A DNA stretch of 64,000 nucleotides from Candidatus Uhrbacteria bacterium (GCA_903843045.1 CAIMOJ010000046.1:650-64649), one strand, 5' to 3'; positions 10,597 through 54,521 are shown, counted from the first letter of the stretch. Numbers and translations are program-made. The notes: generated from the sequence alone by a model not told the origin.

Positions 10597-11859
10597 TTAT
10601 TCAAGCGGTGTGTGATCAAGATAGTTGAGCGGATTTACCGGGATGCCGTTCAACCGAACTTCGTAGTGCAGGTGCGCCCCGGTCGAAAGTCCCGCGCCCT
10701 GCATTCCAGGGACTCCGCCGGAAAGTCCGATCACCGTTCCGCGTCCGACGTACTCGTCCTGCTTTACGGCAAACTTCGATAAGTGGGCATAGAGCGTCGC
10801 GATGCCGTCCGCGTGGATAACCATCACGTAGTTGCCATACTGCGTTCCGGTCTTCGTCCATGCCACGTATCCCGGCGCGGATGACTTTACCGGAGTGCCG
10901 AGCGGCGTCGGTATATCGATTCCCGGATGCTCGAACAAATGTCGGAACGGATAGGTCGGATCATGATAAAGCGTCGAGAGCCCCTTGTTCGGAGCCAGTG
11001 GCCACGAGATGACACTACTCCCCTGCCCCGTATTGTCCAGAGTTGACAGTTTGCGCTCAACCTCGCCCTGAAGGGCGCCAATCTCCTGGCTGACGGACTG
11101 CTGTTCCGCGTGAATGCTGGATAAAAAGCCCTGAAACGCGCTTTCCGTGCGCTGAGTCTGGGCGAGAAGGAACTGCTTTGCCTCCTTTTCCTCGTCGAGC
11201 TGACCCTTTTGGCGCAATTGGTCGGCCTGGAGATCGGCAAGGCGCGTGCGCTTCCCAACCTGCGAGGCACGGTCATTTATCACGGACGTTCGCTCGGCCT
11301 CCGCGCGCGTCAGAGCGTTCTTCAGGTCTCCCGTTACGCTTGAAAGCTGCTGCAGCCGGTCGAACAGCTCGCCAAACGAATCCGAGCCGAACAGGAGCTG
11401 CAGCGTCATGTCGTTGTCATACGTGTCCATCTTGCGGAGAATGTCGCCAAGGGATGCGCGGTCGAGTTCAAGCTGATGCTCGATCGCGTCGGCGCGGATC
11501 TGCAGAAGCTGGATCTCGTCGTTCGTGGCCGAGATGTCCTCGTCGGTCGCCGAGATGTCCAGTTCAGTCTTCGCCACGCGGTTGTCGAGCAATTCCATCT
11601 CGCTTACGAGCGTCGCGCTCTGCGCCTCCGCATCCGCGATCTTTTTTTTGTACGTGGCCACGCTCCCGTTCAGCTTGTCCACCTCCGCCTTCTTCTGCGC
11701 GATCTGATCGTTCAGGTCCGTGATCGTTCCTGCCGCCTTGGAATCGCTTACGGCGACGGGTGATGCCACATCCGACGTATCCGCAAAAACAGCGCGAACG
11801 ACAACGGACGTCGCGGCCATCACGGCGATCAGCGGAATGAAGAGGAACGATTTTTTCAT
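10597..11859 (-). CDS. EnvC-like murein hydrolase activator / M23 (LytM) peptidase with long N-terminal coiled coil
   Basis: Signal peptide, ~250 aa coiled coil, C-terminal LytM domain (GIDIPTPLGTPV...GLSTGAHLHYEVR). Confidence 0.8.
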   Translation of the reverse strand: MKKSFLFIPLIAVMAATSVVVRAVFADTSDVASPVAVSDSKAAGTITDLNDQIAQKKAEVDKLNGSVATYKKKIADAEAQSATLVSEMELLDNRVAKTELDISATDEDISATNDEIQLLQIRADAIEHQLELDRASLGDILRKMDTYDNDMTLQLLFGSDSFGELFDRLQQLSSVTGDLKNALTRAEAERTSVINDRASQVGKRTRLADLQADQLRQKGQLDEEKEAKQFLLAQTQRTESAFQGFLSSIHAEQQSVSQEIGALQGEVERKLSTLDNTGQGSSVISWPLAPNKGLSTLYHDPTYPFRHLFEHPGIDIPTPLGTPVKSSAPGYVAWTKTGTQYGNYVMVIHADGIATLYAHLSKFAVKQDEYVGRGTVIGLSGGVPGMQGAGLSTGAHLHYEVRLNGIPVNPLNYLDHTPLE

Positions 11860-11872
11860 GTCGATATCGTCT

Positions 11873-11924
11873 CCCTCTCCTTTAAAAAGAGAGGGCTGGG
11901 GTGAGGTCTACGTCGTCTACGTCG
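11873..11924. repeat. Palindromic element family A, copy 1 (intergenic; its 3' end supplies the gltX stop codon)
   Basis: tccctctcctttaaaaagagagggctggggtgaggtctacgtcgtctacgtcg. Confidence 0.7.
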
Positions 11925-19144: not shown

Positions 19145-19965
19145 TCGTCTTCGCCGCATTCACCCCGCACACCCCGCTTCTCCTTCCGCCCATCGGCAAG
19201 GATGCCCTCCAAAAAATGTCGTCAACGGCCGATGCCATGGATCGGCTCGGCGACGAGCTTCGCGAGGCGCGGCCCGACACGATCGTGATTATCTCCGCCC
19301 ATGCCACCCAGCATGACGGCGCTTTTTCGGCGAACCTGCACGACTCGTATCTCGTCGACCTCCGCGACTTCGGCGACCTCACCACGAGCGCGGAGTTCGA
19401 GCCGAACCTCTCTCTCATCGACGCGATCCAGCGCGCGGTTCGTCGCGCACAAATCCCCTTCACCCTCGACTCGGACTCGACGCTCGACTACGGCACCGCC
19501 GTTCCGCTCGTCGCGCTCGGCGCCAACCACCTGCTGCCAACGCTGAGCGTTGGCAGCAGCGACGGTTGCACGATCGTTCCGATCTCCTTCAGCAACCTTT
19601 CCGCGAAGGACCATTTCGCATTCGGAAAGACACTCAAGGACGTATTTGCAAATCGCAAGGAACGCATCGCCGTCATCGCGTCCGGCGATCTGTCTCATGC
19701 CCTCACTTCTGACGCACCGGCCGGCTACCGACCTGAGGGCGAAATTTTTGATTCTGCCGTCCGACAGGCGGTCGTCCAGGCAAGCGCGTCCCAGCTGCTT
19801 ACGCTCGACGAAGAGACCGTCGAAACGGCGGAGGAATGCGCCTATCGCCCCCTGCTCGTCCTCTTCGGAATCCTCGACCAAATTCCGGCGAGTCCGGAGG
19901 TGCTCTCCTACGAGCACCCATTCGGCGTCGGCTATCTCGTGGCGCAGTTCCGTCTCGACAAATAA
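19141..19965 (+). CDS. MEMO1/AmmeMemoRadiSam-B-like (LigB-type extradiol dioxygenase fold) protein
   Basis: 274 aa; DTIVIISAHATQHDG and GDLSHALT segments typical of the class III dioxygenase/Memo fold; 4-nt overlap with the upstream gene; carries a family C palindrome. Confidence 0.5.
   Translation: MIVFAAFTPHTPLLLPPIGKDALQKMSSTADAMDRLGDELREARPDTIVIISAHATQHDGAFSANLHDSYLVDLRDFGDLTTSAEFEPNLSLIDAIQRAVRRAQIPFTLDSDSTLDYGTAVPLVALGANHLLPTLSVGSSDGCTIVPISFSNLSAKDHFAFGKTLKDVFANRKERIAVIASGDLSHALTSDAPAGYRPEGEIFDSAVRQAVVQASASQLLTLDEETVETAEECAYRPLLVLFGILDQIPASPEVLSYEHPFGVGYLVAQFRLDK
19531..19559. repeat. Palindromic element family C copy (29-nt perfect palindrome, in frame, encodes LLPTLSVGSS)
   Basis: ctgctgccaacgctgagcgttggcagcag. 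Confidence 0.6.
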
Positions 19966-20065: not shown

Positions 20066-21943
20066 GTGATCGCGGAAATCTATCCAATCAAACGCATGCC
20101 GCGCCGGTTCGACGTTTTCGACTATCAGATCCCGGCCGGCATGAACCTCACTCGCGGATCCGGCGTCCGGATCCCGTTTCGGTTTGGAGAAATGCGCGGA
20201 ATCGTGGCGCATGTAACCGACGGCGCAGGACGCGGAAAGACGATAAAGCCGGTCTCCGCGATCCTGTCGGACCTTTCGATGACTGACGACGAGCTCTCGT
20301 GCTTCGAGGACGTCGCGTTCGACACGGCGCAGAGCGTTTCCGCCGTTCTCCACGCGACGATCCCGATCCCGGGAAAACGACTCGTTTCGCCCCCCTCTCC
20401 TTCAAAAGGAGAGGGCCGGGGTGAGGTCTACGTCTCGCCACTCACCATCTCTGCCCGCGAAGCCCCGCAAATCTCTCAGGTCGTCACGGAACTCTCCACC
20501 CGGTCCGAGGCGTTTGTCGCCATTCCTGACCTCAAGCGCGCCGCCGTCCTCATCGCGACCTACCGCCGTGACCACCCGACCGAACCCATCCTCGTCCTCG
20601 CGCCGAACGTTCGCGATGCGCGTCTCCTCGCGTCCCGACTCGCCGGAAACGAGACGGTCGTCGTGACCGGCGAGGAGTCCCCGGCCGAGCGCTTCCGCCG
20701 CTGGAAGCTCTGGCGCGGCCGGAAGACGGGTCTCCTCGTCGGTTCCCGCATGGCAGCCCTTTGGACGCACCCGACGCTCGGCGCGGTATTCCTCGTACGC
20801 TCGGGACACCCCAACCATAAGCAGAACGACCGCAATCCACGCTTCGACGCGCGATTCGTGGGACAGGTTCTCCATGAACGGCTTTCCGCCAAGCGCTTTC
20901 ACCTCGACGTCATGCCAAGCACCGAGGATCTCGTCGGCTTCGGCGCGGCGAACCTTCTCGGCTCGACCGCGCGACCGGAGACGATCATCGCCGACATGAC
21001 GATCGAGCGCGCCGGCTCTCCACACCCTTGCCTCGGCAACAGCCTCGTCATCGAAGTCGCCCAGACGCTCGCCGAGAACCGCCGCGTCATTTGCGCCTAC
21101 AACCTGAAGGGCGTGTCCCGACGACTGCAGTGCGCAGACTGCGGGCACCGGTTTCCGTGCGAGAATTGCGGAGGCGTCCTCGCCCCGTACGTGACCACGG
21201 TCCAATGCCACCGATGCGGACGAACCGAGCCGCTGCCGACCTCCTGCCCCGCATGCCACAAGAACAAACTGACGCCGAAAGGATTTGGAAATCGCGCGGT
21301 CGCTGCGGCCCTCCAGTCGGCGTTCCCCGAGGCAACCGTCGCCTGCCTCGACCGGGACACGGACGTGGATGGCGCGAAGGACGCGGACATCCTCGTCGTT
21401 ACGCGCCATTACGTCGAGAACGTCTTTGACCCGTTTCACCCGCCGGACGTCGGTCTCGTCGCCGAGCTTGAGGGAGACCGGTCCTTGTTCGAGCCGTCCT
21501 ACCGCGCCCTCGAGAAATCCCTGCTCAACGCCGAGGAGTGGCGCGGAATCGCCCACGCCTGCCGCGCGAGGTTCCTCATCCAGACCGAGATGCCCGATCT
21601 GTTCCGCAACGCCCTCTCGCAGCCGGAAAAGGCCCTTCTCGACGACCTTGCCATCCGCAAGTCCTACGCCCAGCCGCCGTATGTCCGCGCCATGACCGTC
21701 GACTTCAAGCCCGACGAGCCGGACGAACAAGCCCGAGGAATCGCAAAGGCCATCGAAGCTATCCGCGCCGTCTCCCCGTCGACGGACATCGCCAAGCTCC
21801 CCTCTCCTTTAAAAGGAGAGGGTCAGGGTGAGGTCTACGCCTCTCTACGTCTCACCGTCCCCCCGTCCGACGAGCGCGCCGTTCTCCAGGCCTTTTCCCC
21901 GCTCGACGACTCGTATATCATTGACACAAGGCCGTTGGAATGA
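20066..21943 (+). CDS. priA: Primosomal protein N' (PriA)-like, apparently lacking a canonical Walker A
   Basis: PriA-type Cys-rich zinc-binding region (CADCG..CENCG..CHRCG..CPACH), PriA-like 3'BD and C-terminal regions; two in-frame family A insertions. Confidence 0.55.
   Translation: MIAEIYPIKRMPRRFDVFDYQIPAGMNLTRGSGVRIPFRFGEMRGIVAHVTDGAGRGKTIKPVSAILSDLSMTDDELSCFEDVAFDTAQSVSAVLHATIPIPGKRLVSPPSPSKGEGRGEVYVSPLTISAREAPQISQVVTELSTRSEAFVAIPDLKRAAVLIATYRRDHPTEPILVLAPNVRDARLLASRLAGNETVVVTGEESPAERFRRWKLWRGRKTGLLVGSRMAALWTHPTLGAVFLVRSGHPNHKQNDRNPRFDARFVGQVLHERLSAKRFHLDVMPSTEDLVGFGAANLLGSTARPETIIADMTIERAGSPHPCLGNSLVIEVAQTLAENRRVICAYNLKGVSRRLQCADCGHRFPCENCGGVLAPYVTTVQCHRCGRTEPLPTSCPACHKNKLTPKGFGNRAVAAALQSAFPEATVACLDRDTDVDGAKDADILVVTRHYVENVFDPFHPPDVGLVAELEGDRSLFEPSYRALEKSLLNAEEWRGIAHACRARFLIQTEMPDLFRNALSQPEKALLDDLAIRKSYAQPPYVRAMTVDFKPDEPDEQARGIAKAIEAIRAVSPSTDIAKLPSPLKGEGQGEVYASLRLTVPPSDERAVLQAFSPLDDSYIIDTRPLE
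20392..20446. repeat. Palindromic element family A, copy 2 (in frame in priA: SPPSPSKGEGRGEVYVSPLT)
   Basis: cccctctccttcaaaaggagagggccggggtgaggtctacgtctcgccactcacc. Confidence 0.75.
21799..21856. repeat. Palindromic element family A, copy 3 (in frame near the priA C-terminus: LPSPLKGEGQGEVYASLRLT)
   Basis: cccctctcctttaaaaggagagggtcagggtgaggtctacgcctctctacgtctcacc. Confidence 0.75.
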
Positions 21944-22452: not shown

Positions 22453-23430
22453 ATGATTCGCATTGCGTTCTTTGGAACCCCCGAGTTCTCCGTCCCATTT
22501 TTAACGGCCCTTGTCGACGACCCCGCATTCGAGGTCGTCGCTGTCGTTTCACAGCCCGATCGTCCGTCCGGACGCAATCACGAGATCGTCCCGACCCCGG
22601 TCAAATCCGTCGCGCTGGACCACCAGATTCCGGTCCTGCAACCTTCGACCCTGCGCGATGAATCCGTCGCGACGACGCTTCGCTCCCTTGATGCGGACTA
22701 CTTTGTCGTGGTCGCCTATGGCAAGATCATCCCGCAGGCCGTCCTCGACGTCCCGCGGCTCGGCTGCGTCAACGTCCATCCTTCCCTCCTGCCGAAGTAC
22801 CGCGGCCCGTCCCCGATGAACTGGGCGATCGCGGAGGGCGACGCGACCACCGGCGTCACGATCATGCTGCTCGACGCGGGGATGGATACCGGACCGATCC
22901 TGTCCCAGACGAGCATCGGCCTTGATTCCGACGAGACGATGGAAACGCTCATGGCCAAGGCGCACGAGCAGGGCGTCCCGCTCCTCGTCGACGCGCTCAA
23001 GCGATTCGCGGCAGGCGAGATCGTCCCCGTCGCGCAAAACGACGAGCTCGCGACGATGACGAAGCTGCTCGACCGCGACGACGGCCGCGTCAACTGGACG
23101 CTTCCCATGGCAACGATCGAGCGACGCCTGCGCGCCTACCAGCCCTGGCCGGGACTCTGGACCGTCTGGACCCGCACGCTCCCCTCTCCTTTAAAAGGAG
23201 AGGGTCAGGGTGAGGTCTACGTCCGTTTGAAGATCCATTCCCTCCAACCGTCCGACTTCCGCGCCGACCTTCCGCCCGGAACCGTCTCAACGAAAAACAG
23301 TCGACTCTTCGTCGACTGTTCGGACGGGACGATCGAGATCCTTGAACTCCAGCCGGAAGGAAAACCCCGAATGTCCGCGGAAGCGTTCCTCCTGGGCTAT
23401 TCCGACGTGAACGGCGCCATGCTTGGCTGA
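22453..23430 (+). CDS. fmt: Methionyl-tRNA formyltransferase
   Basis: Formyltransferase N-domain (FFGTPEF...HPSLLPKYRG) and C-terminal domain; carries an in-frame family A insertion. Confidence 0.85.
   Translation: MIRIAFFGTPEFSVPFLTALVDDPAFEVVAVVSQPDRPSGRNHEIVPTPVKSVALDHQIPVLQPSTLRDESVATTLRSLDADYFVVVAYGKIIPQAVLDVPRLGCVNVHPSLLPKYRGPSPMNWAIAEGDATTGVTIMLLDAGMDTGPILSQTSIGLDSDETMETLMAKAHEQGVPLLVDALKRFAAGEIVPVAQNDELATMTKLLDRDDGRVNWTLPMATIERRLRAYQPWPGLWTVWTRTLPSPLKGEGQGEVYVRLKIHSLQPSDFRADLPPGTVSTKNSRLFVDCSDGTIEILELQPEGKPRMSAEAFLLGYSDVNGAMLG
23181..23221. repeat. Palindromic element family A, copy 4 (in frame in the fmt C-domain: LPSPLKGEGQGEVYV)
   Basis: cccctctcctttaaaaggagagggtcagggtgaggtctacg. 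Confidence 0.75.
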
Positions 23431-26501: not shown

Positions 26502-27583
26502 AGATATTCCTTCAATTTCTCAAGCTGTCTTTCGTTCGTAAACTCGTCGGCAGCCCGCCGATAGGCCGCTTCGCCCAGCCGCTGCCGTTCCGCGTCGCTC
26601 ATGGCCAGAAGATACACCGCGTCCGCGAGCGCCGCAATGTCCCCGTCCTTGACGAGAATGCCGGTTATTCCGTCGAGAACAGCCTCGTCGACGCCCCGCA
26701 TGTCCGTCGCAACCGACGGGACGCCGTGCAACGCGGCCTCGAGATACACCATGCCGAATCCCTCGCGGTCGACGGAATCCGCCACGACCGGCTCGACGAA
26801 TATGTCGGCGGCGGCGTAATGGTCGGAGAGCTGATCGTCGGCCACGTCGCGAGCGATCGTCACGCGGTCGTCGAGACCGAGCTCGGAGATGCGTCGCGCG
26901 ATCGTCTCGAGATAAGGCCCGTCGCCGACGATGTCGTATCGAATGTCGATCGCCGGCCACTGGCGGCGAAGCAATGCCATCGCGTCGAGAACGCGGACGT
27001 GTCCCTTGCGCGAGACGAGCCTTGCCACGGTCAGCAGGTTTACCGGACCGATCGCTCCAAGCATCCCAGCCCCCGGTCCCCTGACTCGTTTCCTCTCCTC
27101 ATAGGGAGGAGGGGTCAGGGGTGGTTGACGCGCTTCGACCGTCGGATACACGACAATCGTCCTCCTTACCCCAAACTCTTCTCTCACTTCCCTCTCCAGC
27201 GCCTTCGAGTTCGCGACGACAACCTTCGCCCCGCGCAGAACCATCCCCGCGACGATTCGCTTCATCCATCGCGTCTTCGCAAGCCCGACATCCATCCCAT
27301 GGACGATCACGACGTACGGCGTGCCCGTCATCCATCGGAAAACCATCGCCGCCGTCCCGATCGGAAGGACATGGCTAACCACGATCTGACTACCAACGCT
27401 TGGCATCGGTAGCAAACGTCGATCGCGAACAAACCGTCGAAGCGCCTGCCACCACCTGGTGGACGGATCAACAACCGTCACTTCCATCGAATCAGAAAAA
27501 TATGCGGTGAGATTCCCGAGATATCTTGCGACTCCGCCCCGCGATGGCGCGTAATCAGTCGTGTATAGCCGTGTCTTCGGCAT
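26498..27583 (-). CDS. GT4-family glycosyltransferase (GT-B fold)
   Basis: C-terminal EX7E motif (EGFGMVYLEAALHGVPSV); inter-domain linker carries a palindromic insertion and the N-domain a family C copy. Confidence 0.7.
   Translation of the reverse strand: MPKTRLYTTDYAPSRGGVARYLGNLTAYFSDSMEVTVVDPSTRWWQALRRFVRDRRLLPMPSVGSQIVVSHVLPIGTAAMVFRWMTGTPYVVIVHGMDVGLAKTRWMKRIVAGMVLRGAKVVVANSKALEREVREEFGVRRTIVVYPTVEARQPPLTPPPYEERKRVRGPGAGMLGAIGPVNLLTVARLVSRKGHVRVLDAMALLRRQWPAIDIRYDIVGDGPYLETIARRISELGLDDRVTIARDVADDQLSDHYAAADIFVEPVVADSVDREGFGMVYLEAALHGVPSVATDMRGVDEAVLDGITGILVKDGDIAALADAVYLLAMSDAERQRLGEAAYRRAADEFTNERQLEKLKEYL
27077..27120. repeat. Imperfect G/C-rich palindrome related to family A, in frame in the GT4 linker (QPPLTPPPYEERKRVRGPG)
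   Basis: cccctgactcgtttcctctcctcatagggaggaggggtcagggg. Confidence 0.5.
27397..27426. repeat. Palindromic element family C copy (in frame in GT4, encodes LLPMPSVGSQ on the minus strand)
   Basis: ctgactaccaacgcttggcatcggtagcaa. Confidence 0.5.
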
Positions 27584-41281: not shown

Positions 41282-42673
41282 ATGAAGCTTCTCCAGCCCA
41301 TCTCAGGCACCGTCGACCGGCTTGCACCGGACGGCAGCGGCGTGATCAATCGTCCCGAGGGAAAACCTTTTTTGATTTATAACGTGATTCCGGGCGAGGA
41401 GGTGACCGCGACAGTCGTGAAGCGCGGGCCGGACGGCGTGCGGGCGAAGCTCGACTCGATCGTCGTCGCGTCGCCGGACCGCGTCGCGCCGCGCTGCCCG
41501 TATGCCGGAACGTGCGGGGGGTGCAAGTGGCAGCACGTGGATTATACACGGCAGCGGACGGAGAAGCTGAATCGGCTGCGGTCGACCTTCGCGGAAGCTG
41601 CGACCGAGTGCCCCGTCGAATCCGTCGTCGCGTCGCCGGACCAATTCTACTACCGCAATCGCATGGACTTCACCTTCGGCCGCGACGGCGAGCTCGGTTT
41701 GAAGATGCCGGACAAATGGTGGGCCGCGCTCAACCTGGAGACATGCTACCTGCTCTCCCCCGAATCCGTCGAGATCGTCAACGCGGTCCGCGAGTGGGCA
41801 CGATCGACGGGATTGCCGTTCTGGGACGGAAAGACGCACGCGGGATTCTTCCGATATCTCGTGATCCGCGAGGGAAAGAACACGGGCGAGCGCATGGTGA
41901 CGCTCGTGACGGCGACGAACGACGCGTTTCGTCCCGAGGGACTCGTCGCCGCGATTGGAGACCGGGCGACTTCGATTGTTCACGGGATCAACGATGGCAT
42001 CACCGACCTCTCGATCTCCGACGTGCTCGTCCCGCTCAAGGGCAACCCGTTCATTCACGAGGAGATAAACGGCGTCCGGTTTAAGATCACGCCGAACGCG
42101 TTCTTCCAGACGAACTCGGCAATGGCCGCCAAGCTCCAGGACGAGGTCGTGCGCCACTGCGAGACAGCCGTCGTTGGCAAGACGAACCCGACCGTCCTCG
42201 ACCTCTACTGCGGATCGGGATTCTTCTCGCTCGCGTTGGCGAAGCGATCCTCGACGATCAAGGTCGTCGGCATCGAGGAAAACGCCGAGGCGATCGCCTG
42301 CGCCAAGGAAAACGTGGCCGCGAACGCCGTCGAGGCCGAGTACTTCGTCTCAAAGGCCGAGGAGTTCGACTGGAAGAGCTACGCCCCCGACGTCGTCATC
42401 GTCGACCCGCCGCGCGCCGGAATGCACCCAAAGGTCATCGAGACCCTCCTTGAGGCCGCGCCGCCGACGATCATTTACATTTCCTGCAAATACGAGCGCT
42501 TCCTGATGGAATGGAACGGAACCGCCAACAGCGCCCCGGCCCTCTCGACGAAATACCGCCTCGCCGACGCGGCCGCCCTCGACCTCTTCCCGCACACCCC
42601 GCACATCGAGTTCGTCGCCCGCCTCGAATCGCTCCCCTCTCCTTCAAAAGGAGAGGGACAGGGTGAGGTCTAA
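41282..42673 (+). CDS. RlmD/RumA-family 23S rRNA (uracil-5)-methyltransferase (TRAM + Fe-S + SAM MTase)
   Basis: TRAM N-domain, Cys cluster (CPYAGTCGGCKWQH), SAM motif LDLYCGSGFFSLA; C-terminus extended by a family A element that supplies the TAA stop. Confidence 0.75.
   Translation: MKLLQPISGTVDRLAPDGSGVINRPEGKPFLIYNVIPGEEVTATVVKRGPDGVRAKLDSIVVASPDRVAPRCPYAGTCGGCKWQHVDYTRQRTEKLNRLRSTFAEAATECPVESVVASPDQFYYRNRMDFTFGRDGELGLKMPDKWWAALNLETCYLLSPESVEIVNAVREWARSTGLPFWDGKTHAGFFRYLVIREGKNTGERMVTLVTATNDAFRPEGLVAAIGDRATSIVHGINDGITDLSISDVLVPLKGNPFIHEEINGVRFKITPNAFFQTNSAMAAKLQDEVVRHCETAVVGKTNPTVLDLYCGSGFFSLALAKRSSTIKVVGIEENAEAIACAKENVAANAVEAEYFVSKAEEFDWKSYAPDVVIVDPPRAGMHPKVIETLLEAAPPTIIYISCKYERFLMEWNGTANSAPALSTKYRLADAAALDLFPHTPHIEFVARLESLPSPSKGEGQGEV
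42634..42673. repeat. Palindromic element family A, copy 5 (encodes C-terminal LPSPSKGEGQGEV* of the rlmD-like gene)
   Basis: cccctctccttcaaaaggagagggacagggtgaggtctaa. Confidence 0.75.
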
Positions 42674-47468: not shown

Positions 47469-49799
47469 TTAGTCGAACTTGATCGTCTGACCGGAGTAGA
47501 CCGTGCCGGACTTTAGCGGGACCCAGCCGTCATTGTCGTCGGACGGCGGAGGAGTTGGAACGACGGGGGCCGGAGTCGGTGGCTTCGGAGTTGGCGCGGG
47601 CGTCGTGACGGGAGCCGGAACCGGAGCCGGGTTACTACCAACGCTCGGCGTTGGCAGCAACGGCTTGGGAGCGACGGGTTGTTGTGGATGTGAGTTGTTT
47701 GTAATTTGTGGCGTAGCGGACGGCCTCGGCTTCGGGCTTTGCAGAAACGCCTGGGGCGAGTTCGGGCCGCCGGTGCCCTTGTTAGGGCGCTTGCGGCGCG
47801 TGTCCTTGCCTGGGACGAAGGGGCGCGGTCCCGTCGCGGCCGGGGTTGGCTGTAATTGTCGCGGAGTCGACGGAGAGCCGTGCGTCGCGGCAACCGCGAT
47901 CGGCGCGGCTGGCGTAACCGTCGGGGGGCTGTTGAGCGGAGACGACAGCATCTGAGACATGAAGTCGGTCGCGGGCGCTGGCGTCGAGACGACGGGCTTT
48001 GGCGCGACGACCACCCCTGACCCCTCTCCCACCGTCGGGCGGGATCCCGCCAACGGCGGTGACTGCCTATCAGGAGGGGAAACGTGCTTGATGACCGGAG
48101 CTGCCGGAGGCCTGGCGACTGGGGCCAATGCGGTGAGCGATACGGACGGCGCGGGACGAGGGGCCGCGACAACGGGAACGCTCTCAACCACGGTCCTTCG
48201 AGTTGTCTCAGGGCGATCTTGAGAGATCGGCGGCGGGGGCGGCGACGGAGGACGTCTCGTGTCCTTGCGGTCCTTCCCCTTCGCGCGTTCCTCCTTCACG
48301 ATCTCGATGCATTCCTCGCAGTAAATCGGACGACTCGTGTCGAGCTGAACTGCGAGCGCGATGTCCTTGTTACAGCGCGAACACTTGTAGTCGAACCTCG
48401 GTTTCTTCGCGCCCTTCGCGTCTTTTTTCTTCTGCTCCATCTCCGCGACCATCTTCCCGATGGACTCGTCGTCTCCCATCCCCGTCCACTTCATGATCTT
48501 GTCCGCGATCTCCTCGCGCGGCGTCGTGTACCGCTCGCGGCTCACCTTGATCACCTTCTCTTCCGATCCCGTCCTTTTGGCAATCGGCGGGAGCGTCTGA
48601 GCCGAGAATGGCTGGCTCGTAACGCCGTCGATGAGAAGCTTCAAATAGATGTTGTACTTGGGAAGGTTGATGATGTCCTCCGGCAAAAAGCGCGGCGCGA
48701 ACTCCGTTTCCATGTATGCGGCGTCCGGCGAACCGACGCGGAACGTAACGATCGTTCCGACGTTTCCAAACACGGCCTCGCGCACCTCGTCGGAGAGCTG
48801 GGCAATGTATTGGTGGGCCATCGTCAGGCACAGGCGGTACTTGCGCGCCTCGGATAGGATTCCGGCAAACGATTCCGTCGCGAAGTTCTGGAACTCGTCC
48901 ACGTACATATAAAAATCCTTGCGCTCGTGCTCCGGCTGGTCCACGCGTTCCATGGCCGACAGCTGCAGCTTCGTGATCAGCAGACCGCCGAGCAGGCGCA
49001 TGTTGTCCTCGCCGATGCGGCCCTTCGACAGGTTGATGATCAGGATCTTCTGCTCGTCCATCAGCTGGCGGATGTTGATGGTCGACTTTACCTGCGCGAC
49101 GATATTGCGAATGACCGAGGCGGACAAAAACTGACCGATCTTGTTCTGGATCGGGGCCACGGCCTCCTGCGCGTACTTCTCCTGGTAGCTGGCGAATTCC
49201 ACCAGCCAGAACTGCTTCACCACCGGATCCTGCACGTTTGCGACGATCTTGCGTCGGAAGTCCGCATCGGACAGCATGCGGTTGATTCCAAGCAGCGTCG
49301 ACCCCGGGTTGTCCAAGAGCGCGAGGATCGCGTTGTTCAGGATGTACTCCATGCGCGCGCTCCAGAGGTTCTCCCAAAGCTTCTTGAACACGCCCATCAT
49401 TCCGGACGCGACCAGGTGCTTCGTCTTCTCGCTGACCGTCTCCAAGATGTTGAATCCGATCGGAAAATCAAGGTCGGCCGGATTGAAGTAGATGACGTCG
49501 TTTATGCGCCAGCTCGGGATATAGTCGATAAGCCGCTCGGCCGTGTCGCCGTGCGGGTCGATGTACGCGCATCCGTGGCCGGCATAGATGTCGGTAAGAA
49601 TGAGGTTTTCGAGCAGGACCGTCTTGCCCATGCCCGTTTTTCCGATCACGTACACGTGGCGGCGGCGGTCATCGGTCTTAACGCCAAATTTCCGCATCTG
49701 ATTGCGGAAATTGGTGCGTGCAAAGTAGTTTACCTCGTTCTCGTGATCGTGGGCGTAGCTCATACGGGAAGGTTCGGGGGAATACCGTCGTCGACCCAT
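47469..49799 (-). CDS. VirD4/TraD/TraG-like (type IV coupling protein or HerA/DUF87-like) P-loop ATPase with C-terminal zinc ribbon and ~280-aa Pro/Ala/Thr-rich tail
   Basis: Walker A VIGKTGMGKT, Walker B FYMYVDEFQNF, coupling-protein-type LTMAHQYIAQL motif, CxxC-x17-CxxC ribbon (CSRCN...CEEC), low-complexity tail (PPSPPPPP, APVPAPVTTPAPTPKPP); alternative start 49763. Confidence 0.7.
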   Translation of the reverse strand: MGRRRYSPEPSRMSYAHDHENEVNYFARTNFRNQMRKFGVKTDDRRRHVYVIGKTGMGKTVLLENLILTDIYAGHGCAYIDPHGDTAERLIDYIPSWRINDVIYFNPADLDFPIGFNILETVSEKTKHLVASGMMGVFKKLWENLWSARMEYILNNAILALLDNPGSTLLGINRMLSDADFRRKIVANVQDPVVKQFWLVEFASYQEKYAQEAVAPIQNKIGQFLSASVIRNIVAQVKSTINIRQLMDEQKILIINLSKGRIGEDNMRLLGGLLITKLQLSAMERVDQPEHERKDFYMYVDEFQNFATESFAGILSEARKYRLCLTMAHQYIAQLSDEVREAVFGNVGTIVTFRVGSPDAAYMETEFAPRFLPEDIINLPKYNIYLKLLIDGVTSQPFSAQTLPPIAKRTGSEEKVIKVSRERYTTPREEIADKIMKWTGMGDDESIGKMVAEMEQKKKDAKGAKKPRFDYKCSRCNKDIALAVQLDTSRPIYCEECIEIVKEERAKGKDRKDTRRPPSPPPPPISQDRPETTRRTVVESVPVVAAPRPAPSVSLTALAPVARPPAAPVIKHVSPPDRQSPPLAGSRPTVGEGSGVVVAPKPVVSTPAPATDFMSQMLSSPLNSPPTVTPAAPIAVAATHGSPSTPRQLQPTPAATGPRPFVPGKDTRRKRPNKGTGGPNSPQAFLQSPKPRPSATPQITNNSHPQQPVAPKPLLPTPSVGSNPAPVPAPVTTPAPTPKPPTPAPVVPTPPPSDDNDGWVPLKSGTVYSGQTIKFD
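47631..47660. repeat. Palindromic element family C copy (encodes LLPTPSVGSN in the ATPase tail)
   Basis: ttactaccaacgctcggcgttggcagcaac. Confidence 0.5.
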
Positions 49800-51427
49800 C
49801 CCGGCGGCGGTCCGGGGAGCTCAACGTCGGCGGGAGGACCCATGTCAACCGCGTCGAGCCCGTCCTCGCCTTCCTCGTCGGGAGTAAACTGATGCGCGGA
49901 CGCGGGAGCCTCGGACGGTTCCATTCCAGGCAGCCGGATCTCCGGCTCCTGTGCCGTCTCATGCGATTGAACGTGCGATCCGTGATCCTCATGTGCACCG
50001 GCGCCATGCGACAATGCCACTCCGCCTTGATGCGCAGACAAAACCGGGGCGTGCGCGGAAACCGGCATGCGGGTCGGCGTCGAATGGTGGTCGACGTCGT
50101 CCGATCCGATCGGAAGCCCGACCGGCGGCTCGGCACGCTTGGCGTCGGCCTTCTTCACGAGCGGGGCCTTCACCGTGATCGACGGGAAGTGCCAGAGCGT
50201 GGCGAGTTCCTCGATGTTGAGCGTCCATGCGTCCGCGCCAATTCCCCACGATCGGTTGCGGAACGCGCGAACGAGCCGTCCTTGGCGCGCGGCGTACGTC
50301 CATGCCTGCCAGAAATAGTCGTCCTTCGGCGTGGCGTCACCGTGCAATCCGAGCGAGTTCATGTTCAGGTGCGCGAACTGGTTGAACATCCCCTTCACGA
50401 ACGCGGTACGTGCCTGCTTGTCGTATACGCCCTTCTTGCCGAGATACACCAGGCGCATCTTCGTCTTGTAACCCACCTTGCCAATCTTCTTCAGAACGCC
50501 CTCAACCTGTTCCTTTTCGGCCATCGTGATCTTGAATGCCTTCCACATGTCAGGATCCTGCGCCGGCTTCGCATGCGGATCCGCCCCCGTCGAAAAGCCA
50601 AACGCTTCCATCGCGATGTCTGCCGGGATCGAGAGGGCGTTGGTGATCAGGTTTTCGAACGCGCCCGGCGCATGTTTCTTCTCGTTTCCGAACACCTTGT
50701 TGATAAAGTCCTCGCCGGCCTTCTTCCAGTCGTTCCCGTCCGGCTTGATGATGATTTGAATCCAAAAGTGCTCGCCGACCTTCATCTTTGCCAGCTGTTC
50801 CAGAATCGGACCGAGCGGGTCCTTCAGTTCGCCGGAAATCTTATCCTCGAAGTCCGTGTAGGTGCGCAGCGGAAAGATCTCCGGTTTTTTCAAAATGAGC
50901 TCGCTTCCCCACGTGTCCCAGGTATCGTGCGGATATTCTCCCGGTGCCCAGCTCGCATAGTCCTCGACTTCCGTGATCTCCGCCTCCGGATACGCCGCGT
51001 AAATGCCCGCCTCGGCCACGTCGCGATAACGGGTCTGCGTTCGCATGTAGAACTGCACGTATCCCTCGGTAGAGACGATCTCAAACGAGAACGGGGACTG
51101 AAACTTTCCGATGATCCACTTTTCCTTCCAAGTCAGGTTGGAAAACGATCCCCAGAGGGAGGAGAACATGTTCTCGAGCGCCTTCGGCGTCTGCTCCGTC
51201 ATCGGCGGGACATCGATGGCAAGGAGACAGAATTTCAAGGACGCGTTGTACTTCTCCTGCCGCGTAACTTTCCAGATCTCCGTGATTCCCCACAGGATCA
51301 CAATCACGATAGGGATCCATCCGAACCACACGAGCAGGTCGTAAAGAACGACGTCTATCGGCTGGTTCCAAAACAGCGGGGACGAGAGGGAGTCGAAAAG
51401 GGATGCGGCGAAGAACATAGTGAGCAC
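49760..51427 (-). CDS. Membrane protein partner of the ATPase (two N-terminal TM helices, large soluble domain, His- and Pro-rich C-terminus)
   Basis: TMs at residues ~1-20 and ~28-50; C-terminal HGAGAHEDHGSHVQSH, PGPPPGW; 3' end overlaps the ATPase start. Confidence 0.5.
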   Translation of the reverse strand: MLTMFFAASLFDSLSSPLFWNQPIDVVLYDLLVWFGWIPIVIVILWGITEIWKVTRQEKYNASLKFCLLAIDVPPMTEQTPKALENMFSSLWGSFSNLTWKEKWIIGKFQSPFSFEIVSTEGYVQFYMRTQTRYRDVAEAGIYAAYPEAEITEVEDYASWAPGEYPHDTWDTWGSELILKKPEIFPLRTYTDFEDKISGELKDPLGPILEQLAKMKVGEHFWIQIIIKPDGNDWKKAGEDFINKVFGNEKKHAPGAFENLITNALSIPADIAMEAFGFSTGADPHAKPAQDPDMWKAFKITMAEKEQVEGVLKKIGKVGYKTKMRLVYLGKKGVYDKQARTAFVKGMFNQFAHLNMNSLGLHGDATPKDDYFWQAWTYAARQGRLVRAFRNRSWGIGADAWTLNIEELATLWHFPSITVKAPLVKKADAKRAEPPVGLPIGSDDVDHHSTPTRMPVSAHAPVLSAHQGGVALSHGAGAHEDHGSHVQSHETAQEPEIRLPGMEPSEAPASAHQFTPDEEGEDGLDAVDMGPPADVELPGPPPGWVDDGIPPNLPV

Positions 51428-51493
51428 AGTATAACACGGAGGGGCGAGTGGATACCAATCTATAAATCCGTTACAAAACCACGAATCAACAAA

Positions 51494-51522
51494 ACGCTAC
51501 GAATAAAGTATTCGTAGCGTTC
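51494..51522 (-). terminator. Intrinsic terminator of secDF (12-bp perfect stem)
   Basis: acgctacgaata aag tattcgtagcgt, then ttttgttg on the minus strand. Confidence 0.55.
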
Positions 51523-51553: not shown

Positions 51554-52450
51554 CTACTTCTTCTTCATCATCTCCCACTCCACGAGCGCCGGGCTCGCGA
51601 AGAAGATCGAGGAGTACGTTCCAACGAGGACGCCGATGAGCAATGCCAGCGCGAACGGGCGCGTGGTCTCGCCGCCGATTACGAGGATCGAGGAGAGCGC
51701 GAGAAGCACGGTCACCGACGTGTTGATGGAGCGGATGTACGTCTGCTGGATGGACTTTTCCACGATGTCCTCGAACGCCTCGCCGGTGTGGCGGGACAGG
51801 TTCTCGCGGGTTCGGTCGAAGACGACGACCGTGTCGGAGATCGAGTAACCGAGGATGGTCAGCATGGCCGCGATGAACGCCGTGCCCACTTCCCAGTGCC
51901 AGTAGTGGCCGATCACGGCGAAGACGCCGAGCGGGATGATGACGTCGTGCGCCGCGCAGAGCACCGTAAGCATGCCGTACTTCCACGAGGCGATCGGCTC
52001 GGAAACCTTCCGGAACGCCCAGGAGATGTAGAGGCCGATCAGCACGAGCGTGGTGACGAGGCCGAGCATCGCGGACTTGCGCAGCTCGTTGCCGATCACC
52101 GGGCCGATGGAATCGAACTTGTCCTCGGTAAAGTCGCCGAACTTCGTATGAAGCGTGGTCAGGACGGCCTGGTGCTGCTCCTCGGTGAGCGACGGAAGGC
52201 GAACGAGCGCGCGGTTGCCGGACGACGACTGGACCGTGACGCCCTGCTCGCCGGAATCGGTCAGGGCCGAGGTGATGTCCGCGGAAGCCGGGGTCGCGTT
52301 CACGAAGGAAAGCTCCATGAGCGACCCCCCCTTGAAGTCAATGGAGAATTCCAAGCCGAAGACGGCAAGGGCGACGAAGCTGGCGACGATCGAGAGACCG
52401 GACAGGGCGAACCACCAGCGGCGAAGCCCGACGAAAGAGAATTTTTTCAT
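51554..52450 (-). CDS. secF: Protein translocase subunit SecF
   Basis: 298 aa, 6 TM helices, SecF signature; 1-nt gap to secD. Confidence 0.9.
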   Translation of the reverse strand: MKKFSFVGLRRWWFALSGLSIVASFVALAVFGLEFSIDFKGGSLMELSFVNATPASADITSALTDSGEQGVTVQSSSGNRALVRLPSLTEEQHQAVLTTLHTKFGDFTEDKFDSIGPVIGNELRKSAMLGLVTTLVLIGLYISWAFRKVSEPIASWKYGMLTVLCAAHDVIIPLGVFAVIGHYWHWEVGTAFIAAMLTILGYSISDTVVVFDRTRENLSRHTGEAFEDIVEKSIQQTYIRSINTSVTVLLALSSILVIGGETTRPFALALLIGVLVGTYSSIFFASPALVEWEMMKKK

Positions 52451-52451
52451 A

Positions 52452-54521
<2,070 letters not shown>

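Follow-up and report, generated by a model that had tools for sequence, protein, structure and literature searches.

Two overlapping minus-strand genes of Candidatus Uhrbacteria, an ultra-small bacterium of the Patescibacteria (CPR), probably (about 0.6) make up a translationally coupled bicistron. Its two products would be the subunits of a single translocation ATPase, tethered to the membrane and belonging to the VirB4/VirD4 branch of the FtsK-HerA superfamily. The genes lie in a window of 64,000 nt, by which we mean the whole stretch of DNA that was analysed. The first subunit, a DUF8128 protein called the partner here, would cross the membrane with one helix (N-out/C-in), continue into a cytoplasmic domain folded like the VirB4 N-terminal domain (NTD) and finish in a flexible tail that closes with PPNLPV. 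The second would be a soluble TrwB/VirD4-like P-loop motor followed by a zinc ribbon and a long disordered arm, with a conserved peptide at the C-terminus. The catalytic motifs are intact, the pairing is conserved, and the two domain sets that are split here occur fused elsewhere. The function is presumably ATP-driven translocation of nucleic acid, possibly of protein, at the cytoplasmic membrane.

The ORF call gave a partner of 555 aa (49760..51427, GTG start) and an ATPase of 776 aa (47469..49799, ATG start), the lengths quoted in a preliminary description of this DNA. Because the 100% identical database copies are 552 aa (P0001) and 764 aa (P0121), the likely starts are ATG 51418 and ATG 49763 (Table 1). 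Both ORFs were confirmed. The ATGA at which stop and start overlap is a classic coupling junction, which indicates that partner and ATPase are probably translationally coupled. The same -4 overlap recurred at 9 related loci; in most others the genes were no more than about 30 nt apart. The terminator-like hairpin between secF and the partner gene suggests that the pair may be a bicistronic unit of its own. No paralogue of either gene was found within the window.

Table 1. Positions of the two genes, their parts and the flanking features in the window. A1 and A2 are the family alignments of partner and ATPase.
Feature	Position	Strand	Basis and remarks
secD (52452-54521) and secF (51554-52450)	51554..54521	-	Pfam annotation; context only, upstream of partner
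Terminator-like hairpin, 14-bp stem, between secF and partner gene	51492..51522	-	Sequence
Partner gene, 552 aa, DUF8128/PF26449	49760..51418	-	ORF and identical P0001; alternative GTG 51427 gives 555 aa
Single TM helix of partner, residues 20-49, PIDVVLYDLLVWFGWIPIVIVILWGITEIW	51272..51361	-	Kyte-Doolittle maximum 2.35; N-out/C-in predicted
Cytoplasmic globular DUF8128 domain, residues 60-428	50135..51241	-	Predicted VirB4-NTD-like fold
Disordered, variable partner tail, residues 429-546	49781..50134	-	pLDDT <50; unalignable and of varying length in A1
Conserved C-terminal peptide PPNLPV of partner	49763..49780	-	P547, L550 and P551 invariant in A1
ATGA junction	49760..49763	-	Read from sequence; partner TGA overlaps ATPase ATG (start ATG 49763)
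ATPase gene, 764 aa	47469..49763	-	ORF and identical P0121; alternative ATG 49799 gives 776 aa
Coupling-protein-type P-loop motor, residues about 30-425	48489..49676	-	Pfam, phrog_5156 and hhalign
Walker A GKTGMGKT, residues 41-48	49620..49643	-	Translation; G41-K47 invariant in A2
Walker B VDEFQ, residues 288-292	48888..48902	-	Translation; V288-Q292 invariant in A2
CxxC-x17-CxxC zinc ribbon of ATPase, residues 461-485	48309..48383	-	In 117/120 homologues
Pro/Ala/Thr/Val-rich disordered ATPase tail, residues about 500-744	47532..48266	-	Composition; pLDDT <50
Conserved C-terminal peptide of ATPase, SGTVYSGQTIKFD	47472..47510	-	sGTLxxGQxIxF[DE] at C-terminus in most of 120 homologues
17-nt palindrome CCAACGC-NNN-GCGTTGG in tail-coding region	47638..47654	.	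Second perfect copy at 19537-19553

The ATPase had been described as VirD4/TraD-like, and the profile searches agreed. Pfam TrwB_AAD_bind (41 bits, cut-off 20.5), T4SS-DNA_transf and TraG-D_C all scored above cut-off, TrwB and DotL were the best solved relatives in a PDB sequence search, and hhalign matched the ATPase to TrwB of R388 over 270 columns (P=94.7%, E 5.6e-8). The TrwB_AAD_bind match spans profile positions 12-317, and in a low-confidence model of the ATPase (pLDDT 55.5), residues 106-236 or so are mostly helical, where an all-alpha insert in the nucleotide-binding domain, as in coupling proteins, might lie. The motifs reported earlier as GKTGMGKT, hhhhDEFQ and AHQY were found as GKTGMGKT, YVDEFQ and MAHQY, with Walker A and B invariant across 41 homologues. 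Other members of the superfamily scored below cut-off: DUF87 (HerA) reached 20.8 bits of 23.2 and NCBIfam VirB4_CagE 12.7 of 643, and hhalign of A2 against the VirB4 protein TrwK gave P=4% with a match limited to the P-loop. FtsK_SpoIIIE, which as best match was to have spoken against the preliminary description, reached 13.3 bits (cut-off 24) with the P-loop alone aligned. In PADLOC, the ATPase matched mad8 of the MADS defence system at 54.6 bits and the partner had no match; membership in MADS was rejected, given the ATPase-only match and the housekeeping neighbours. No hydrophobic segment was found in the ATPase (maximum Kyte-Doolittle value 1.08), in line with the earlier reading that it has no TM segments, and it has no N-terminal TM domain of its own.

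P0001 and nearly all of its homologues carry a precomputed PF26449 (DUF8128) match. Two N-terminal TM helices had been proposed for the partner. Residues 20-49 were the sole Kyte-Doolittle window at or above 1.6, the AlphaFold model showed one long helix (21-60), and the other, short N-terminal helices of the model are insufficient in length to cross the membrane, indicating that the partner has one TM helix and not two. No Lys or Arg precedes this helix and four follow it. The partner thus does far more than supply an anchor, since it has a domain of about 370 aa predicted to fold like the N-terminal domain of VirB4; second-best in the fold comparison was EccE, from the ESX type VII protein secretion system. 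The likeness to VirB4 is structural only, and hhalign of A1 against TrwK found nothing (P=0.4%). The pair and VirB4 (TrwK) share the same overall order, an N-terminal domain followed by a RecA-type ATPase, and a membrane helix ahead of a VirB4-like domain recalls VirB3-VirB4 fusions. However, VirB4 is one polypeptide without sequence similarity to the partner, whereas two polypeptides are made here and the motor is coupling-protein-like by sequence. In most of 80 species loci, the partner had a PPxNLP[VIMLT] peptide at its C-terminus or close to it.

Outside the phylum, the nearest relative is the phage family phrog_5156 (Bacillus phage G gp156, SPO1 gp27.4 and 0305phi8-36 orf201), a single chain in which the partner corresponds to the N-terminal half and the ATPase to the C-terminal half. 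The profile matched both proteins collinearly: partner residues 93-353 aligned with positions 62-309 (E 1e-13) and ATPase residues 30-425 with positions 406-806 (E 3.5e-63). In hhalign against phage G gp156, the two halves gave P=97% and P=99.9%, respectively, and Foldseek against viral proteins returned gp156 at E 4e-17. A Priestia ORF, like gp156, carries both parts in one chain. Pathria et al. (2012) described such a phage protein as an N-terminal domain of unknown nature followed by a VirD4-like C-terminal ATPase, and the family, dispensable in the laboratory, lies in phage 'DNA translocation operons' with a relaxase-like and a VirB6-like gene (PMC3357382). Unlike the CPR ATPase, gp156 has no zinc-ribbon family among its Pfam matches, and because the hhalign match ends at residue 789 of 825, there is no space for a long tail.

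Related modules were also found on haloarchaeal plasmids. On NZ_CP135525 of Halomontanus rarus, a DUF8128-like gene lies directly upstream of and overlaps a coupling-protein gene, in the same order as in the CPR pair, although its product is shorter than the CPR partner, at 378 aa. This pair adjoins a VirB6/TrbL-like gene as well as another large ATPase, which, together with its plasmid location, indicates a conjugation-type context. A partner-like gene was present on 54 plasmids, and in some haloarchaeal plasmids the two parts are fused. The collinearity of both halves with single-chain phage proteins and the pairs and fusions on haloarchaeal plasmids indicate that the pair is one split motor. 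The single-chain forms (phrog_5156, gp156, the Priestia ORF) strengthened the earlier proposal that the membrane anchor is supplied in trans by the partner gene. In such a motor, the partner would tether an oligomeric, probably hexameric, ATPase at the cytoplasmic membrane and dock it to a channel, with ATP hydrolysis powering the threading of a polymer to or through the membrane. The disordered arms of both subunits and their terminal peptides may bind one another, or they may recruit an adaptor or the cargo.

Hundreds of related Patescibacteria/CPR species keep the pair as a chromosomal, housekeeping-like unit, and at 50% identity the family falls into 2,767 clusters. The ATPase gene was directly downstream of the partner gene in 76 of 80 species loci; three of the four exceptions are contig ends, which makes the pairing 76 of 77 evaluable species-level loci. 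At locus L078, the partner has no ATPase within 8 kb. A pairing not kept in relatives had been named beforehand as the result that would count against the module, and the opposite was observed. Across loci, the ATPase core was 52-99% identical, whereas SecD/SecF ranged over 41-98% and the partner over 37-94%, so that the ATPase core is conserved above SecD or SecF. The pair was absent from IMG/VR viral contigs. In Patescibacteria, these are vertically inherited, strongly constrained chromosomal genes.

These data bear on two other readings. It is highly improbable that the pair is an FtsK-like pump for chromosome segregation or division, or that it lacks a conserved cellular role and is left over from a mobile element or a defence ATPase. 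The shared FtsK superfamily, the membrane tether, a proline-rich linker resembling that of FtsK, the mad8 match and the relatives in phages and plasmids would fit this reading. However, the FtsK_SpoIIIE score is below cut-off and no gamma domain is present, the partner lacks a PADLOC match, and the chromosomal pair sits amid housekeeping genes and not in viral contigs. Moreover, constraint stronger than that on SecDF indicates that the pair is not a decaying remnant. It is also very unlikely that the pair acts with SecDF in protein export or membrane-protein biogenesis, for example as an unfoldase or motor for special secreted proteins. This would account for secF and secD being the next genes upstream at about 66 of the 80 loci, for the often envelope-related downstream neighbours (UppP in 27 loci) and for the EccE match. 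Against it, the strong hairpin separates secF from the pair, core-gene synteny in reduced genomes need not imply a common function, and every homologue from outside the phylum sits in a setting of the DNA-transfer type, either a phage 'DNA translocation operon' or a conjugative-type plasmid (PMC3357382).

Coupling proteins (TrwB of R388, VirD4, TraD, DotL) have a P-loop motor homologous to the ATPase but carry the N-terminal membrane domain in the same chain. Here the ATPase lacks that domain, is accompanied by a separate VirB4-NTD-like subunit, and adds the zinc ribbon, the long disordered arm and the terminal peptide; the pair resides on the chromosome, is conserved vertically and has no linkage to relaxase or mating-pair genes. 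Only housekeeping genes were found in the 64-kb window. No other Pfam-recognisable type IV secretion gene was among them, in line with the earlier remark that none is nearby, and genes for a relaxase, VirB6, pilin or ComEC were likewise absent. The pair could still be the coupling protein, that is the substrate receptor, of a type IV secretion system encoded elsewhere, feeding protein effectors or DNA into it for export to the host, which we consider possible but unlikely. Such a role would suit the sequence membership of the ATPase, the haloarchaeal relatives clustered with VirB6-like and large ATPase genes, and the disordered C-terminal arm, since F-plasmid TraD also has one that ends in a recognition peptide. 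In Patescibacteria, t4cp genes are often distant from virB4, only 148 of 5,713 being near it (PMC12102498). However, coupling-protein homologues occur in 2,918 of 3,035 genomes and so exceed VirB4 (2,474 genes), and in Southlakia epibionticum a t4cp homologue, not necessarily the orthologue of this ATPase family, is non-essential while the type IV secretion system is essential (PMC12102498). For coupling proteins, such very strong constraint on the sequence and synteny with housekeeping genes are also atypical. Given these counts and relaxases in only 103 genomes (PMC12102498), classical relaxase-dependent conjugation by the pair is unlikely. The literature records unlinked Patescibacterial coupling proteins but neither the DUF8128 partner nor the split architecture.

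For the split translocation ATPase that we favour, the cargo is most likely nucleic acid. The direction could be import, by analogy with CedB/CedD, or delivery to a distantly encoded type IV secretion apparatus. The crenarchaeal CedB/CedD have the same architecture, a TM segment, a VirB4-NTD-like domain and an ATPase of the same superfamily, they are encoded on the chromosome, and DNA import requires them (PMC11868833). Their ATPases are, however, of HerA/VirB4 type and single chains, whereas the one here is of coupling-protein type and split; matches of the ATPase to NCBIfam CedD and CedB were weak and at P-loop level only (25.7 bits, cut-off 600). On this analogy, we tentatively suggest, at rather low probability, that the pair is a bacterial counterpart of CedB/CedD that imports host RNA or DNA brought by type IV secretion pili, with the zinc ribbon and disordered arms capturing the incoming polymer. 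If true, this would explain the near-universal coupling-protein homologues (PMC12102498), the strong conservation of the motor wherever it is found, and a pair unlinked to relaxases and kept in genomes unable to make nucleotides. It would also supply the mechanism left open in a 2026 report on host-RNA feeding (bioRxiv 10.64898/2026.06.21.733656). Several points count against the favoured reading: the lack of relaxase, VirB6, pilin and ComEC genes in the window, the purely structural likeness to VirB4, locus L078, and the secDF adjacency, which could point to protein export. To these are added, in S. epibionticum, the non-essential t4cp homologue and a competence that depends on ComEC (PMC12102498, PMC12857230).

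The zinc ribbon and the Pro-rich low-complexity tail of the preliminary description were both recovered. The ribbon weakly matched PF23477 and TIGR04272, and the same domain type binds zinc in small proteins of Methanosarcina (PMC12704099). After about residue 500, P/A/T/V/S made up 66-76% of most 50-aa blocks (46% in residues 651-700), and the length beyond the ribbon varied from 23 to 474 aa across species. Variants of the terminal peptide across 80 loci were G[QE]xIxF[DE] and [DE][IV]FPW. Tail, ribbon and terminal motif are thus conserved throughout the family rather than special to this genome. Far from an oddity that hosts a mobile element, the tail represents a conserved disordered arm ending in a putative docking-type motif; the 'family C element' once assigned to it is merely the 17-nt palindrome, of which 2 copies were found against 0.08 expected.

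The genes for the DUF8128 protein (the partner) and for the ATPase were located on the minus strand (see table). Proteins identical to the partner and the ATPase are annotated in public assemblies with 552 aa and 764 aa, respectively, and the starts were therefore set at ATG 51418 and ATG 49763. The ATG of the ATPase thus lies on the TGA of the partner (ATGA, 49760-49763), in agreement with the translational coupling (overlapping or abutting genes) claimed in the preliminary description. A terminator-like hairpin with a 14-bp stem separates secF from the partner gene, and a weaker terminator-like hairpin was found 3′ of the ATPase gene. The ATGA overlap and the flanking hairpins suggest that the two genes form their own bicistronic unit. 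A scan for sigma-70 promoters found nothing.

Positions of the gene pair and of other features in the window
Feature	Positions	Strand	Remark
Partner ORF	49760..51427	minus	DUF8128
ATPase ORF	47469..49799	minus	
SecD	52452-54521		689 aa
17-nt palindrome	47638-47654		inside the ATPase tail-coding region
17-nt palindrome	19537-19553		
Palindrome, weaker copy	27389-27415		
30-nt match	48002-48030 and 27104-27133		
~53-nt element	11858-11910, 20378-20430, 21785-21837, 23167-23219, 42620-42672		five copies, at gene ends

The ATPase had been described as VirD4/TraD-like, and Pfam profiles agreed. TrwB_AAD_bind matched with 41 bits (cut-off 20.5), and T4SS-DNA_transf and TraG-D_C were also above threshold. 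The opposing assignment, with FtsK as best profile, failed, FtsK_SpoIIIE reaching 13 bits against a cut-off of 24. DUF87 stayed below the Pfam threshold (20.8 versus 23.2), and all NCBIfam matches were sub-threshold, with TraD and the VirD4-like CD1115 family ahead of the weaker CedD and CedB. TrwB and DotL were the only solved structures related to the ATPase by sequence; searching the PDB with the ATPase alignment profile was no more sensitive than with the single sequence. A profile of 41 ATPase homologues was then compared with proteins of R388. The alignment with TrwB spans 270 columns (E 5.6e-8, P=94.7%), that with VirB4 only the P-loop. The Walker A (GKTGMGKT) and Walker B (VDEFQ) motifs showed no variation among the homologues.

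As described earlier, the ATPase has no TM segment, no hydrophobic stretch being detected, and a zinc ribbon (CxxC-x17-CxxC) follows the motor in 117 of 120 homologues. Ribbons of this type bind zinc in small proteins of Methanosarcina (PMC12704099). The low-complexity tail is very variable in length, extending 23-474 aa beyond the ribbon across homologues, and the C-terminal peptide is conserved as sGTLxxGQxIxF[D/E], with [D/E][I/V]FPW instead in one sub-clade. The AlphaFold model of the ATPase (pLDDT 55.5) was too poor for a fold search or for a check of the all-alpha domain. A PADLOC match to mad8 was dropped as a functional assignment, being at odds with both the partner and the genomic context.

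Homologues of the partner carry DUF8128 (PF26449). The partner was missed by local Pfam and NCBIfam scans, the Pfam copy used being older than PF26449, and no mention of the name DUF8128 was found in the searchable literature. Instead of the two N-terminal TM helices previously assigned to the partner, one strong hydrophobic segment was found at residues 20-49, and the model shows it as one long helix. It is preceded by no basic residue and followed by four; an N-out/C-in topology is predicted, the remainder being cytoplasmic. A globular domain at residues 60-428 is modelled well and highly conserved, 71 columns being invariant among 43 sequences; residues 429-546 are disordered and variable, and the extreme C-terminus, PPNLPV, is essentially invariant. 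In a Foldseek search, thirteen chains of TrwK, the VirB4 of R388, ranked on top. Alignment of the partner family with TrwK by hhalign detected no sequence-level similarity, so the link to VirB4 is a purely structural one. As modelled, the DUF8128 globular domain has a VirB4-N-terminal-domain-like fold. At 50% identity the family falls into 2,767 clusters, and the best 150 of these are all stand-alone proteins.

The pairing was compared across 80 species-representative Patescibacteria loci. The ATPase gene lies immediately 3′ of the partner gene on the same strand in 76; the refuting outcome named earlier, a pairing not conserved in relatives, was not observed. Among the four loci without an adjoining ATPase gene, three are contig ends and one is a real exception: L078 (JBAZPX010000001.1) has a DUF8128 gene that lacks secDF upstream and any coupling-protein gene within 8 kb. 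At most loci the two genes are spaced by -4 or a few tens of bases, and secD-secF lies directly upstream of the partner in ~66 of 80. The secD-secF-DUF8128-ATPase block is kept across distant Patescibacteria, often with uppP or mnmA after it. No third specific conserved gene was found 3′ of the pair, the genes there encoding MnmA, UppP and an HD-domain protein. Conservation of the ATPase core was consistently above that of SecD, SecF and the partner, indicating strong purifying selection. Homologues are labelled, for instance, Candidatus Uhrbacteria or Patescibacteria group bacterium. The taxa seen so far are Uhrbacteria, Falkowbacteria, Paceibacter and others labelled only Parcubacteria or Patescibacteria, in at least 595 species genomes.

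Two further features were observed in this neighbourhood. SecD contains parvulin-type rotamase (PPIase) domains (PF13616, PF00639); its alignment with more distant relatives starts only from residues ~280-310 onward, so the insert may be lineage-specific. Directly 3′ of the main ATPase, 9 of 76 loci have a second, tail-less coupling-protein-like paralogue of ~459 aa (for example L009:4332-5711), a possible reason why about two t4cp genes are counted per genome (PMC12102498).

Relatives outside the Patescibacteria were found in phages and plasmids. In PHROGs, the phage family phrog_5156 matched both proteins: partner residues 93-353 fell on positions 62-309, and ATPase residues 30-425 on positions 406-806 (E 3.5e-63, a far stronger match than any in Pfam). 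Gp156 of Bacillus phage G (825 aa) is a full-length member. Its residues 17-167 align with the partner family (P=97%) and residues 376-789 with the ATPase family (P=99.9%, E 1.4e-35). Moreover, the partner model matched gp156 among viral proteins in Foldseek (E 4e-17). Further related phage proteins are SPO1 gp27.4 and those of CP-51, JL, TP-84 and D6E, and in a Priestia megaterium ORF a single chain runs from a membrane helix through a DUF8128-like domain into the beginning of the ATPase. The phage protein was named by Pathria et al. as coupling ATPase of a 'DNA translocation operon', with VirD4 resemblance in its C-terminal half alone (PMC3357382). IMG/VR viral contigs scanned with the partner alignment gave zero relatives. 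On haloarchaeal plasmids (54 records), a DUF8128-like gene lies directly 5′ of, or is fused with, a coupling-protein gene; in the one plasmid examined, a VirB6/TrbL-like gene and a second large ATPase adjoin them. Near gp156, phage G has an SPO1 gp27.3-like (relaxase-like) gene. Just upstream of gp156, gp155 (L083:4237-5886) matches Pfam P-loop_TraG, AAA_10 and DUF87, as a VirB4-type ATPase. PHROGs places it in phrog_2666, 'terminase large subunit', a label that may be a mis-annotation.

Sequence and model comparisons indicate that the pair is one unit, matching the single-chain phage proteins and the haloarchaeal plasmid modules. It is predicted to be a two-polypeptide assembly of a membrane-anchored VirB4-NTD-like protein and a soluble motor of the coupling-protein type whose catalytic motifs are intact. 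By sequence the motor belongs with coupling proteins, but the ATPase here lacks two features that define the classical ones, a membrane domain of its own and linkage to transfer genes. The overall plan of the pair resembles that of VirB4 and CedB/CedD, the order of TM, VirB4-NTD-like domain and ATPase being common to CedB/CedD and the pair. The partner would tether an oligomeric motor at the cytoplasmic membrane face and dock it to a channel, and ATP hydrolysis would move a polymer. The disordered arms of both proteins, each ending in a conserved peptide, could recruit cargo, an adaptor or one another. A nucleic acid is the favoured cargo, because every extra-phylum relative has a DNA-transfer context and because the motor is homologous to coupling proteins and bears a zinc ribbon. 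Classical conjugation is an unlikely role, since among 3,035 Patescibacteria genomes relaxases are rare (103) and coupling-protein homologues near-universal (2,918), yet only 148 of these homologues lie near virB4 (PMC12102498). Import is one possible direction of transport. CedB/CedD, with the same plan, serve DNA import in archaea and are necessary for it (PMC11868833). On the other hand, two published findings speak against import: competence of Southlakia needs ComEC, and its t4cp homologue, a possible orthologue of the ATPase family here, is dispensable (PMC12102498, PMC12857230). A preprint reports that a Patescibacterium feeds on host RNA, by a route left open (bioRxiv 10.64898/2026.06.21.733656).

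Many unlinked coupling-protein homologues of Patescibacteria are already published, and DUF8128 is already a Pfam entry. The searchable literature yielded no description of the obligate partner-ATPase pairing, of its split-versus-fused relation to phrog_5156 and to the haloarchaeal modules, of a VirB4-N-terminal-domain-like fold in DUF8128, of the conserved tails with their terminal peptides or of the synteny with secDF. Much of bacterial diversity belongs to the Patescibacteria, which live on material from host cells. In a 2025 survey, VirD4-type coupling proteins were present in 96% of Patescibacteria genomes and hardly ever lay beside the secretion system; the survey went no further than to say that another function "cannot be ruled out" (PMC12102498). 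Our results suggest an anatomy for this orphan coupling ATPase as half of a split motor, with the DUF8128 partner as the membrane-anchored other half. The unit would descend from, or be common to, phage and archaeal-plasmid DNA-transfer modules. A vague annotation is thereby turned into testable predictions of the interacting protein pair, the docking peptides and the activities to expect. The pair would also stand between VirB4 and coupling proteins as an intermediate form, which bears on the evolution of type IV secretion ATPases.

The remaining contents of the window were also surveyed. VirB4, VirB6, pilin and relaxase were Pfam-recognisable in none of the window genes, consistent with the reported lack of other T4SS components nearby. 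The genes present include those for cell shape and wall (MreBC, PBP2, MurJ), translation and RNA (aminoacyl-tRNA synthetases, ribosomal proteins, RpoA, MnmA, Era) and other housekeeping functions (ClpB, PriA, SecDF). The window has no paralogue of the partner or the ATPase, and the conserved C-terminal motifs of the pair occur on no other ORF within it. The 'family C element' reported in the tail-coding region is indeed a repeat, but just a 17-nt palindrome (CCAACGC-NNN-GCGTTGG) with one other copy; two copies compare with 0.08 expected in the window. No evidence was found to support it as a mobile insertion. A separate 30-nt match was also recorded. In each copy of the ~53-nt element, a hairpin CCCCTCTCCTT(N)AAAAGGAGAGGG is followed by (C/T)(C/A)GGGGTGAGGTCTA, and the copies resemble a family of intergenic repeats of REP-like or terminator-like type.
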